A DNA stretch of 64,000 bases from Escherichia coli (lineage in GTDB: Bacteria; Pseudomonadota; Gammaproteobacteria; Enterobacterales; Enterobacteriaceae). The stretch lies in NCBI RefSeq assembly GCF_046105845.1, contig NZ_CP151004.1; one strand, given 5' to 3'. The position numbers and the translations under genes were made by a program. Under the pieces are notes generated by a model that saw only the letters and a list, made by a program, of their open reading frames with translations, ran no database searches and was not told where the DNA came from. Numbering within the stretch: position 1 is the stretch's first letter; every line of letters begins with the position of its first letter. This document shows positions 2,662-6,571 of this stretch, in pieces.

Positions 2662-4638
2662 ATGTCTGACGACATGTCTATGGGTTTGCCTTCGTCAGCG
2701 GGCGAACACGGTGTACTACGCTCCATGCAGGAGGTTGCAATGAGCTCCCAGGAAGCCAGCAAGATGCTGCGTACTTACAATATTGCCTGGTGGGGCAATA
2801 ACTACTATGACGTTAACGAGCTGGGCCACATTAGCGTGTGCCCGGACCCGGACGTCCCGGAAGCTCGCGTCGATCTCGCGCAGTTAGTGAAAACTCGTGA
2901 AGCACAGGGCCAGCGTCTGCCTGCACTGTTCTGTTTCCCACAGATCCTGCAGCATCGTTTGCGTTCTATTAACGCCGCGTTCAAACGTGCGCGGGAATCC
3001 TACGGCTATAACGGCGATTACTTCCTCGTTTATCCGATCAAAGTTAACCAGCACCGCCGCGTGATTGAGTCCCTGATTCATTCGGGCGAACCGCTAGGCC
3101 TGGAAGCCGGTTCCAAAGCGGAGTTGATGGCGGTGCTGGCACATGCTGGCATGACCCGTAGCGTCATCGTCTGCAACGGTTATAAGGACCGCGAATATAT
3201 CCGCCTGGCATTAATTGGCGAGAAGATGGGCCACAAGGTCTATCTGGTCATTGAGAAGATGTCAGAAATTGCCATTGTGCTGGATGAAGCAGAACGTCTG
3301 AATGTCGTTCCTCGTCTGGGCGTGCGTGCGCGTCTGGCTTCGCAGGGCTCCGGTAAATGGCAGTCCTCCGGCGGGGAAAAATCGAAGTTCGGCCTGGCGG
3401 CGACTCAGGTACTGCAACTGGTTGAAACCCTGCGTGAAGCCGGGCGTCTCGACAGCCTGCAACTGCTGCACTTCCACCTCGGTTCGCAGATGGCGAATAT
3501 TCGCGATATCGCGACAGGCGTTCGTGAATCCGCGCGTTTCTATGTTGAGCTGCACAAGCTGGGCGTCAATATTCAGTGCTTCGACGTCGGCGGTGGTCTG
3601 GGCGTGGACTATGAAGGCACCCGTTCGCAGTCCGACTGTTCGGTGAACTACGGCCTCAATGAATACGCCAACAACATCATCTGGGCGATTGGTGATGCGT
3701 GTGAAGAAAATGGTCTGCCACATCCGACAGTAATCACCGAGTCGGGTCGTGCGGTGACTGCACATCACACCGTGCTGGTGTCGAATATCATCGGCGTGGA
3801 ACGTAACGAATACACGGTGCCGACTGCGCCTGCAGAAGACGCACCGCGCGCCCTGCAAAGCATGTGGGAAACCTGGCAGGAGATGCACGAACCGGGAACT
3901 CGCCGTTCTCTGCGTGAGTGGTTGCATGACAGCCAGATGGATCTGCACGATATTCATATCGGCTACTCTTCCGGCACCTTTAGCCTGCAAGAACGCGCAT
4001 GGGCTGAGCAGCTTTATTTGAGCATGTGCCATGAAGTGCAAAAGCAGCTGGATCCGCAAAACCGTGCTCATCGTCCGATTATCGACGAGCTGCAGGAACG
4101 TATGGCGGACAAAATGTACGTCAACTTCTCGCTGTTCCAGTCGATGCCGGATGCGTGGGGGATCGACCAGTTGTTCCCGGTTCTGCCGCTGGAAGGGTTG
4201 GATCAAGTGCCGGAACGTCGCGCTGTGCTGCTGGATATTACCTGTGACTCTGACGGTGCTATCGACCACTATATTGATGGTGATGGTATTGCCACGACAA
4301 TGCCAATGCCGGAGTACGATCCAGAGAATCCGCCGATGCTCGGTTTCTTTATGGTCGGCGCATATCAGGAGATCCTCGGCAATATGCACAACCTGTTCGG
4401 TGATACCGAAGCGGTTGACGTGTTCGTGTTCCCTGACGGTAGCGTAGAAGTAGAACTGTCTGACGAAGGCGATACCGTGGCGGACATGCTGCAATATGTA
4501 CAGCTCGATCCGAAAACGCTGTTAACCCAGTTCCGCGATCAAGTGAAGAAAACCGATCTTGATGCTGAACTGCAACAACAGTTCCTTGAAGAGTTCGAGG
4601 CAGGTTTGTACGGTTATACCTATCTTGAAGATGAATAA
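2662..4638 (+). CDS. speA: Biosynthetic arginine decarboxylase
   Basis: ORF 2650..4638; sequence from [25 protein letters not shown]... recognised as SpeA; ATG at 2662 with a gagg SD gives 658 aa. Confidence 0.96.
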
Positions 4639-4654
4639 TTAAGATTATTCCGCT

Positions 4655-4697
4655 GGCGGGTCGATTTATTTACGTAAATCGGCCCGCTTTCTTTTTA
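4655..4697 (+). terminator. Putative intrinsic terminator after speA
   Basis: Imperfect hairpin gcgggtcgattta / taaatcggcccgc followed by tttcttttt. Confidence 0.55.
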
Positions 4698-4783
4698 TAT
4701 ATTCTTAAAAATAATTTAGCTGCTTTTCTTATTAAATAATCCCCCTACAATCGCTGCATTAATTAAATACAGAGGGAACGGTT

Positions 4784-5515
4784 ATGAAAAAAGGGAAAGT
4801 ACGTAGCGCGTTGATAGCATTAGCCGTGCTGCTGGCCGGTTGTTCCAGTAATGCGCAGTATAATAGCAGTGCATCGGGCAATGTCGGCACCGCCTGGGGT
4901 GGGGATGTGCACTCATCGGTTCAGGGCGTATCTGCTGAGCGAGCCTGGCGCGATCCGGCAGAGATGATCGTTATTAGTTATTCGACTAATGTTCCTTCCG
5001 GCTATGATCGCGTTTATAGCATTCGTATTAACGAACTGGAATATGCTATTCGCGATGGTAATTTTAATTCTCTACCTATTACGCGTGTTTATGATTCATC
5101 CAATAATGAACCACGCTATATTGTCCATGCCAGAGTCGGAATGAATTATCAATTATATGTCCGTAATTACAGTCGTAACACCAACTACGAGATCGTTGCT
5201 ACGGTTGATGGCCTGGATGTGCTGAACGGCAAGCAAGGTTCGCTGAATAACAACGGCTATATTGTGAATGCCGGAGATTCGTTAGCGATTAAAGGATTTC
5301 GCAAAGATAAACATACCGAAGCGGCTTTTCAGTTCGCCAACGTTGCTGATTCCTACGCAGCCAATTCGGCGCAAGGCGATGTGCGTAATACCGGGGTAAT
5401 CGGCTTTGCCGCCTTTGAATTACAAGGCTCGGCGCAAAACGCGATGCCGCCGTGCTCTGGACAAGCCTTTCCGGCAGATAACAATGGCTATGCGCCGCCA
5501 CCGTGTCGGAAATAG
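4784..5515 (+). CDS. Predicted lipoprotein of unknown function (243 aa)
   Basis: ATG at 4784 with SD gaggga 5 nt upstream; N-terminus MKKGKVRSALIALAVLLAG-C has a signal peptide and LAGC lipobox; Asn/Tyr/Ser-rich mature part; gene visibly AT-richer than speA/speB; own terminator downstream. Confidence 0.75.
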   Translation: MKKGKVRSALIALAVLLAGCSSNAQYNSSASGNVGTAWGGDVHSSVQGVSAERAWRDPAEMIVISYSTNVPSGYDRVYSIRINELEYAIRDGNFNSLPITRVYDSSNNEPRYIVHARVGMNYQLYVRNYSRNTNYEIVATVDGLDVLNGKQGSLNNNGYIVNAGDSLAIKGFRKDKHTEAAFQFANVADSYAANSAQGDVRNTGVIGFAAFELQGSAQNAMPPCSGQAFPADNNGYAPPPCRK

Positions 5516-5582
5516 CAACCTCGCTTGATGCCTCGTCCATTTAAGGCGATAATTAGCGCAAACTTGTGTTTCGCAAATCCAA

Positions 5583-5622
5583 CCCTTCCTCGTCGGGCCT
5601 AACGACGCGGAAGGGTTTTTTT
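5583..5622 (+). terminator. Intrinsic terminator after the lipoprotein gene
   Basis: Hairpin cccttcctcgtcg ... cgacgcggaaggg followed by a run of seven T. Confidence 0.65.
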
Positions 5623-5650
5623 ATATCGACTTTGTAATAGGAGTCCATCC

Positions 5651-6571
5651 ATGAGCACCTTAGGTCATCAATACGATAACTCACTGGTTTCCAACGCCTT
5701 TGGTTTTTTACGCCTGCCGATGAACTTCCAGCCGTATGACAGCGATGCAGACTGGGTGATTACTGGCGTGCCGTTCGATATGGCCACTTCTGGTCGTGCG
5801 GGTGGTCGTCACGGTCCGGCAGCTATTCGTCAGGTTTCGACGAATCTGGCCTGGGAACACAACCGCTTCCCGTGGAATTTCGACATGCGTGAGCGTCTGA
5901 ACGTGGTGGACTGCGGCGATCTGGTATATGCCTTCGGCGATGCCCGTGAGATGAGCGAAAAACTGCAGGCACACGCCGAGAAGCTGCTGGCTGCCGGTAA
6001 GCGTATGCTCTCCTTCGGTGGTGACCACTTTGTTACGTTGCCGCTGCTGCGTGCACATGCGAAGCATTTCGGCAAAATGGCGCTGGTACACTTTGATGCC
6101 CACACCGATACCTACGCTAACGGTTGTGAATTTGACCACGGCACCATGTTCTATACCGCGCCGAAAGAAGGTCTGATCGACCCGAATCATTCCGTGCAGA
6201 TTGGTATTCGTACTGAGTTCGATAAAGACAACGGCTTTACCGTGCTGGACGCCTGCCAGGTGAACGATCGCAGCGTGGATGACGTTATCGCTCAGGTGAA
6301 ACAGATTGTAGGTGATATGCCGGTTTACCTGACTTTTGATATCGACTGCCTGGATCCTGCTTTCGCGCCGGGAACTGGTACGCCGGTGATTGGCGGCCTG
6401 ACCTCCGATCGCGCCATTAAACTGGTACGCGGCCTGAAAGATCTCAACATCGTTGGGATGGACGTAGTGGAAGTGGCTCCGGCATACGATCAGTCGGAAA
6501 TCACCGCTCTGGCTGCGGCGACGCTGGCGCTGGAGATGCTGTATATCCAGGCGGCGAAAAAGGGCGAGTAA
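5651..6571 (+). CDS. speB: Agmatinase (agmatine ureohydrolase)
   Basis: 306-aa [26 protein letters not shown]... recognised as SpeB (arginase family). Confidence 0.96.

Follow-up and report, generated by a model that had tools for sequence, protein, structure and literature searches.

Between speA, which encodes the biosynthetic arginine decarboxylase, and speB, which encodes agmatinase, an Escherichia coli genome (assembly GCF_046105845.1, contig NZ_CP151004.1) carries a 243-codon gene for a predicted lipoprotein. We analyzed this gene within a stretch of 64,000 nucleotides of the contig, referred to hereafter as the window, and positions are those of the window unless another locus is named. 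The evidence makes it probable that this is an ancestral outer-membrane lipoprotein gene that forms its own transcription unit, was lost in K-12 and may encode a binding module. The features of the region are listed in Table 1; RefSeq labels the gene as hypothetical protein, lipoprotein or membrane protein. A first-pass annotation, made from the sequence alone, had described a complete gene with its own ribosome-binding site in a gap of about 1 kb. This description held: the gap between the end of the speA stop codon (4638) and the speB ATG (5651) is 1012 bp, and a Shine-Dalgarno sequence, GAGGGA, lies 6 nt upstream of the start codon of the open reading frame (ORF).

When the gap (4639-5650) was compared by megablast with 5426 complete E. 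coli genomes, the full region was found in 3550; in the remaining genomes the match was limited to the last 77 bp. In K-12 strain J53, speA and speB are separated by 137 bp with nothing annotated inside, in line with the first-pass annotation, which gave the two genes as adjacent in K-12, and a spacing of 137 bp is also given for MG1655 (PMC8674398). Pairwise alignment with K-12 placed the junctions, which the first-pass annotation had proposed to map: the alignment breaks exactly at the speA stop (4638) and resumes at 5574, and 60 unrelated bp (2941-3000 of the K-12 locus, L001) replace 935 bp that comprise the spacer before the ORF, the ORF itself and 58 bp 3' of it. Exactly 1867 genomes, K-12, BL21 and HS among them, had one copy of this 60-bp filler, which was present in none of the other genomes and nowhere else in E. 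coli genomes; 1791 of the 1867 copies were at least 99% identical. Two sharply defined alleles cover 5417 of the 5426 genomes, with about two thirds carrying the gene and about one third being short. The gene is accessory in E. coli, neither present in K-12 nor shared by essentially all strains.

A gene that is absent from 1867 of 5426 genomes and has a G+C (guanine plus cytosine) content of 48.6%, compared to 54.5% for speA and 55.0% for speB, might have been inserted between originally adjacent speA and speB genes, leaving K-12 as the ancestral empty site. The first-pass annotation had noted the AT-richness, correctly, and had read horizontal acquisition from it. The distribution of the gene order argues otherwise. 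Searches by tblastn with SpeA, the lipoprotein, SpeB, LoiP and MetK as queries, on loci taken from a genome collection and from exact-protein look-ups, recovered the order speA-lipoprotein-speB in cryptic Escherichia clades, E. whittamii, three Citrobacter species, Kluyvera georgiana, two Klebsiella loci, Intestinirhabdus, Phytobacter, Kosakonia, Entomohabitans and an Enterobacter sp., so that about ten other genera and all non-coli Escherichia sampled share the arrangement. In E. albertii the gene adjoins speB on a contig that is cut within the lipoprotein gene. In Salmonella the speA-lipoprotein adjacency is kept and other genes are inserted after the lipoprotein gene; genes for a GntR-family regulator and for mannitol-dehydrogenase-like, zinc-dependent alcohol dehydrogenase-like and Ldh_2-like proteins stand in place of speB (L003/L004, 5886-10732), so that an island has split the lipoprotein gene from speB there.

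The divergence of the gene is also close to that of its neighbors. In comparisons with two other Escherichia, synonymous divergence (dS) was 0.31-0.34 for the lipoprotein gene and 0.27-0.33 for speA, and within E. coli the 935-bp segment differed by 2.35%, compared to 2.5% for speA and 3.5% for speB. The G+C content at third codon positions (GC3) was 46% in the lipoprotein gene and 62% in both speA and speB, and it was 13-28 points below that of the flanking genes in Escherichia, Kluyvera, Klebsiella and Phytobacter (the offset was only 3-6 points in the Enterobacter sp.). Since most genera share this offset, the low G+C appears to be an old property of a weakly codon-biased gene and not the mark of a recent arrival. 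Neither flanking direct or inverted repeats nor mobility genes were found at the junctions (4639 and 5573), and no tRNA gene lies within 12 kb of the locus. The empty allele is moreover a single, nearly invariant sequence, and it carries two synonymous states at the end of speA that are missing from the six Escherichia alleles compared. Although a related copy at another locus in one Citrobacter isolate (see below) fits a mobile gene, insertion into an originally empty site is very improbable on this evidence. The shared gene order, a dS close to that of speA, the old low GC3 and the lack of mobility marks instead argue for loss in the K-12 lineage rather than gain in this strain: the K-12-type allele appears to be the derived one, and the lipoprotein gene appears to have been inherited vertically in the speA-speB spacer since before the compared genera of Enterobacteriaceae diverged.

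The short allele has features of its own. By local alignment, the similarity of the filler to the 935-bp segment was at chance level. A gapped global alignment of the filler with the upstream spacer scored above shuffled sequences (z = 4.0, with 0 of 2000 shuffles equal), while a multiple alignment placed the filler instead opposite the first part of the downstream spacer, with a matching promoter layout; neither alignment amounts to proof of descent. The last 20 nt of K-12 speA contain the two synonymous states mentioned above (ACT and GAG), which are absent from the six Escherichia long alleles. Both occur in Salmonella, Klebsiella and two Citrobacter, and one occurs in the Enterobacter sp. 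Because the speA-end states of K-12 match those of other genera, a short foreign tract may have replaced the region, and the short allele may be such an imported tract. Metagenomes scanned for a 21-mer of the filler yielded 17 contigs, all from E. coli, and no donor was identified. Deletion between two TTTTTATAT repeats located 3' of both terminators was considered as an origin of the short allele and rejected, as it would not yield the K-12 sequence.

Other alleles are shortened within the gene. One truncated E. coli allele, which is common (P0025; 448 member sequences), lacks the C-terminus and encodes 174 aa, and short fragments of the lipoprotein from Shigella dysenteriae are present in the AlphaFold database (AFDB). 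In at least one E. coli genome the region is split into two places, with a break near 5082 that possibly results from the insertion of an insertion sequence. Absence from a third of the genomes and the existence of truncated alleles indicate that the gene is dispensable. They might also be expected if the ORF were spurious or a decaying pseudogene. However, the ratio of nonsynonymous to synonymous divergence (dN/dS) was 0.09-0.14 in comparisons with other Escherichia and with other genera, length and start are conserved across genera, the protein has thousands of homologues and its structure is modelled with confidence, so that the chance of a spurious or decaying ORF is negligible.

The product begins MKKGKVRSALIALAVLLAGC. 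Its signal peptide, MKKGKVRSALIALAVLLAG|C, has a basic n-region (MKKGKVR) followed by a hydrophobic h-region (SALIALAVLLA), and an equivalent region is present throughout the homologue alignment. The lipobox cysteine, Cys20, was invariant in the 54 aligned homologues (54/54), which bears out the signal peptide and LAGC lipobox of the first-pass annotation. In the wider family, 211 of 239 members have a strict lipobox ([LVI][ASTVI][GAS]C); six of the 28 that do not match were inspected, and five of these had near-lipobox variants while one lacked the N-terminus. The residue at +2 was S, A, G, T or Q in 193 of the 211 lipobox-bearing members (S81, A52, G25, T23, Q12) and D in none. After export by Sec, the precursor would be lipidated at Cys20 and cleaved by Lgt, LspA and Lnt, as in established lipoprotein biology. 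Avoidance of the Lol pathway through Asp at +2 is the established sorting rule in Enterobacteriaceae. Since +2 is Ser and not Asp, Lol would deliver this protein to the outer membrane, and it is probably an outer-membrane lipoprotein.

Asn (10.8%), Ser (9.9%) and Tyr (6.3%) are abundant in the mature part, which has cysteines at 224 and 241 near its C-terminus, a composition that the first-pass annotation had noticed. A linker of about 11 residues (9-147 in relatives, median 29) joins the lipidated cysteine to a conserved domain, whose invariant residues include W38, R53, Y66, Y122, N128, E136, D142, Y159, R173 and Y191 and whose alignment shows the motifs GTxWGE, YEIVATVDGLDVLNG, GFRK, YAAN and NxGVIGxAxF. 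An AlphaFold2 model computed from the 54-sequence alignment had a mean predicted local distance difference test score (pLDDT) of 82.5 and a predicted template modelling score of 0.78. Fourteen strands were placed between residues 33 and 213; most of residues 31-215 reached a pLDDT of about 90 or higher, and the tail scored 41-63. The tail carries a motif, FP...YAxPP, that stands at the extreme C-terminal end of 197 of the 239 full-length members of the family, and in the enterobacterial clade the motif is bracketed by the conserved Cys224/Cys241 pair. The protein would thus consist of an all-beta domain of about 185 residues on a short linker, with an FP...YAPPP tail that in enterics would be stapled by a Cys224-Cys241 disulfide. 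A fold search of solved structures with the model returned weak neighbors only, and the predicted fold is a beta-sandwich without an informative solved relative. Circular permutation was seen in two family members, P0266 and P0271, whose GTxYGE hairpin, normally N-terminal, lies just upstream of the C-terminal FP...YAPPP motif; their existence suggests that the N- and C-terminal ends of the domain lie together in the fold.

The family is large. A word-indexed search returned 290 homologues at E<=1e-3, with 74% identity in Salmonella, 61-72% in Citrobacter and Klebsiella and 36-43% in Variovorax, Acidovorax, Paracoccus, Neisseria, Kingella, Providencia, Proteus, Gilliamella, Pseudomonas and Burkholderia. 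When 1.84 billion representatives were searched with a profile, 4193 clusters (at 50% identity) matched at E<=1e-3, 3257 of them at E<=1e-10. Foldseek against AFDB50 added members from Verrucomicrobiota, and all were labelled lipoprotein or uncharacterised. Long members of high G+C content are presumably from Myxococcota. The first-pass annotation had recognised no domain in the mature part, and no match to a characterised family emerged from the searches made here. Pfam gave no match for the protein even at E<=10 and none for any of the 54 aligned members at E<=0.001 (0/54), NCBIfam matched the signal and lipobox stretch only, at scores far below the curated cut-offs, PDB sequence searches and PADLOC gave no match, and PHROGs gave matches at E>0.02 only. 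The protein belongs to a large, uncharacterised and unnamed lipoprotein family that spans several phyla, Proteobacteria and Verrucomicrobiota among them. Citrobacter sp. 18056 carries a 63%-identical copy outside the spe locus (L021/L022, 6001-6729), from which it follows that some lateral movement of family members occurs. The same off-locus contig content also appears under a record named 'Chryseobacterium', suggesting that this assembly is contaminated or mislabelled.

Signals for transcription and termination were found on both sides of the gene. The terminators that the first-pass annotation had placed after speA and after the lipoprotein gene were both recovered. The hairpin downstream of speA (4655-4688), with its U-run, had a folding energy of -23.4 kcal/mol (z -5.4, with 0 of 200 shuffles equal), and its structure is kept over 14 enterobacterial sequences, in which 8 of 14 pairs show compensatory changes. 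The downstream hairpin (5581-5617) with its U7 had a folding energy of -24.4 kcal/mol (z -5.2) and is identical in K-12; the sequence of both stem and loop (GGCCTAA) hardly varies from Escherichia to Klebsiella, Citrobacter, Kluyvera and Enterobacter. In this it differs from the speA terminator, which is free to vary by compensatory change. About 30-35 nt upstream of the lipoprotein ATG, a TAnnnT hexamer occupies one alignment column in all of the enterobacterial spacers compared (16/16) and reads CTACAAT in Escherichia and Salmonella. We infer that this hexamer is the -10 element of a promoter for the lipoprotein gene. A C directly upstream of the -10 element and the absence of a -35 element are typical of RpoS-dependent promoters, and the lipoprotein promoter may be of this type. 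The gene would then form its own transcription unit, in which the speA terminator is followed by a weak promoter that consists of a -10 element (CTACAAT) alone, the Shine-Dalgarno sequence and the ORF, and its transcript would end at the hairpin that also precedes speB. That hairpin is the putative terminator of the lipoprotein gene and, in K-12, of speA.

A second promoter-like site lies in the 3' untranslated region (UTR) of the lipoprotein gene and is likely to serve speB. Its pattern, CTTGA-N17-GCGATAAT, was almost invariant in nine aligned sequences, the exceptions being Klebsiella (CTTGC) and K-12 (GTGATAAT), and in an alignment of 17 sequences Phytobacter and Kosakonia differed in the -35 part (CTGGA). 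The short allele keeps a TTGAAT-17-GATAAT pair upstream of speB at the same distance from the shared hairpin, which lies about 27 nt 3' of the promoter-like pair (5525-5650 in the window; 2950-3077 in the K-12 locus, L001). Since a terminator comes after the promoter there, the arrangement suggests that the speB leader is regulated; no RNA family was matched between 1800 and 7700 in Rfam at E<=1. On the question of co-transcription of the lipoprotein gene with speA and speB, the sequence offers a strong, conserved terminator 3' of speA and a conserved promoter-like site 5' of speB. In Citrobacter gillenii (L016, ~2720-2860) about 140 bp are added between the speB promoter-like site and the hairpin, a segment that we take to resemble the enterobacterial repetitive intergenic consensus/intergenic repeat unit (ERIC/IRU) elements of enterobacteria; Intestinirhabdus (L024) has an extra spacer segment of similar size. 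At the left flank, the mechanical speA ORF begins with TTG at 2650 and the SpeA of RefSeq length (658 aa) begins with ATG at 2662.

Table 1. Positions of the genes, signals and protein regions at the speA-speB locus of the window
Feature	Position	Strand	Evidence
speA (biosynthetic arginine decarboxylase), left flank	2662..4638	+	tblastn, 99.8% aa identity to K-12 SpeA; speA in matching RefSeq loci
E. coli-polymorphic segment (935 bp here, unrelated 60 bp in K-12-type genomes)	4639..5573		alignment break and genome counts
speA intrinsic terminator (15-bp stem, 4-nt loop, U-run)	4655..4697	+	terminator scan, folding
Candidate -10 of lipoprotein gene, TACAAT preceded by C, without a good -35	4746..4751	+	alignment
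Shine-Dalgarno GAGGGA of lipoprotein gene	4772-4777	+	direct sequence reading, 6 nt 5' of ATG
Lipoprotein gene (243 codons plus stop, ATG start)	4784..5515	+	ORF list; dN/dS
Predicted signal peptide (aa 1-19) and lipobox L-A-G-C (aa 17-20); Cys20 first mature residue, Ser at +2	4784..4843	+	
Conserved all-beta globular domain (aa 33-215), predicted	4880..5428	+	AlphaFold2 model, alignment
C-terminal tail (aa 224-243), C-x2-Q-A-F-P-A-D-x2-G-Y-A-P-P-P-C-R-K	5453..5512	+	alignment
Promoter-like TTGATG-17-GATAAT, likely speB promoter, overlapping the lipoprotein gene 3' UTR	5525..5553	+	promoter scan
Hairpin and U7 in speB leader, common to K-12	5581..5624	+	folding, K-12 alignment
speB Shine-Dalgarno AGGAG	5639-5643		
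speB (agmatinase), right flank	5651..6571	+	100% aa identity to K-12 SpeB; speB in RefSeq loci

Among known systems, LpoB, MliC, PliG and YcfL are examples of Lol-sorted outer-membrane lipoproteins of Enterobacteriaceae that consist of a tether and one globular domain. The speA-speB lipoprotein resembles them in its signal peptide and lipobox, its non-Asp +2 residue, its disordered linker and single compact domain, and its monocistronic, non-essential gene; it differs in having no detectable sequence similarity to them, a larger domain (~185 aa) and the family-specific FP...YAPPP tail. Braun's lipoprotein, Lpp, is linked to peptidoglycan through its C-terminal ...YRK. Like Lpp, the present protein would be an outer-membrane lipoprotein, and many family members end in CRK, YRK or YRR. 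However, the model is all-beta whereas Lpp is a coiled coil, Lys is not a conserved final residue (K, R, Y, N and Q occur, with endings such as PRY, YRR and YGN), and the NCBIfam match to Lpp covers the signal peptide only, at 13 bits against a cut-off of 108. Attachment to peptidoglycan through the C-terminal ...RK in the manner of Lpp was rejected on the grounds of the unconserved final Lys and the all-beta fold. The predicted antiparallel beta-sandwich is shared with the peptide-binding MATH/TRAF fold, and USP7, SPOP and TRAF were among the best solved-structure matches. The fungal DUF7918 proteins of Pfam differ from this family in that DUF7918 gave no match even at E<=10 and the fungal proteins are not lipoproteins; the DUF7918 domain is itself uncharacterised, and a literature search found no paper that mentions it. 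Rap1a/Tai4 immunity proteins and lysozyme-inhibitor lipoproteins are, like the predicted product here, small periplasmic accessory proteins of patchy distribution. They share with it a faster evolution than that of housekeeping neighbors (between genera the lipoprotein is 53-74% identical, compared to 94-98% for SpeA), and in Variovorax a homologue is paired with a Rap1a-family gene. In contrast to these systems, the family has no sequence or fold match to them, and the enterobacterial locus has no adjacent effector gene.

Our best guess, made with low confidence, is that the protein would serve as an outer-membrane-tethered module that binds or neutralises a ligand. The domain would face the periplasm and bind a universal envelope component or an envelope-targeting enzyme; the most likely ligand would be related to peptidoglycan or would be an incoming hydrolase that the domain neutralises. 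A broader proposal, which we regard as tentative and rather doubtful, is that the whole family performs one conserved envelope job, either neutralising peptidoglycan-degrading toxins or docking onto a universal envelope component. Docking would involve the invariant acidic/aromatic site and the C-terminal FP...YAPPP tail.

Genomic context outside the enterics gives a weak hint in this direction. In Variovorax and Xenophilus the homologue is followed by a gene whose product, a secreted protein of 115 aa, has a match to Rap1a immunity proteins (PF18602, E 1e-4). This adjacency, the only link seen to type VI secretion system (T6SS) immunity or periplasmic inhibitor proteins, may hint, if weakly, at a protective periplasmic role; in Variovorax this gene lies at 6840-7187 of L007-L009. 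The Comamonadaceae homologue itself is inside the his operon, directly 3' of hisD. In Comamonas and Acidovorax the gap between hisD and hisC (L065, 6764-7482; L069, 8584-9452) holds a putative RHH-PIN toxin-antitoxin pair, read from translated ORFs, and in Acidovorax it also holds an ORF of GntR-aminotransferase type, read from its translation. Because different accessory genes occupy it, the gap appears to be a tolerated landing site and resembles a hot spot for insertions within the his operon. In Providencia the homologue is next to metJ, and elsewhere it lies at unrelated sites. Among 90 loci the only recurring contexts were the enterobacterial spe genes and the Comamonadaceae his genes, and clustering of the neighbors of these loci, in which ORF calling was crude where the G+C content was high, found no partner gene conserved across taxa.

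Its position between speA and speB, kept across Enterobacteriaceae, would be explained if the lipoprotein were linked to polyamines, for example as an envelope sensor, a binder or an exporter accessory for agmatine or putrescine. We consider this quite improbable. The conserved terminator would insulate the gene from speA, speB has its own conserved promoter-like site, homologues outside the enterics never adjoin spe genes, and a third of E. coli, including prototrophic K-12, lack the gene. The lipoprotein would thus not be a polyamine-metabolic enzyme, and laboratory growth would not require it. The domain could alternatively be an enzyme, such as a peptidoglycan hydrolase or another envelope hydrolase. 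E136, D142, R173, Y122, Y159 and Y191 are invariant and D145 is nearly so across several phyla, and conservation this strong suggests one precise site; yet the domain has no conserved His or Cys, its fold matches are non-enzymatic sandwiches (MATH/TRAF, Ig and ZP), and no hydrolase family was matched by sequence. We judge an enzymatic role unlikely.

Several observations weigh against the account of an ancestral outer-membrane binding lipoprotein that was lost in K-12. The consensus sigma-70 promoter scan made no call at the candidate -10 element, which was assigned by eye. Identity between the short-allele filler and the corresponding long-allele spacer is no more than about 48%, with E. coli no closer than other genera, and the loss was therefore not a simple deletion. 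The 63%-identical copy in one Citrobacter isolate stands at a different locus. As to function, the periplasm-facing orientation, as opposed to surface exposure, is putative; no partner gene is conserved outside the two clades with recurring contexts, and no effector gene lies nearby in E. coli. The Rap1a neighbor is confined to Variovorax and Xenophilus, and its site may be merely tolerant of insertions, given that a putative toxin-antitoxin pair occupies the same gap in Comamonas and Acidovorax.

The gene is of an ordinary kind, encoding an outer-membrane lipoprotein that is not essential, and there is no sign of a new mechanism. What it illustrates is that K-12 can mislead: an ancestral gene of the Enterobacteriaceae looks inserted only because the reference strain lost it. 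Its interest is moderate and lies mainly in the entry that it offers to a large unannotated family, one of thousands of clusters for which no Pfam model, solved structure or paper was found. A structure, together with the phenotype of a deletion mutant of a gene-carrying strain, would annotate very many hypothetical lipoproteins. If the family does perform one conserved envelope job, the absence of the gene from K-12 would explain how its function escaped classical E. coli genetics.

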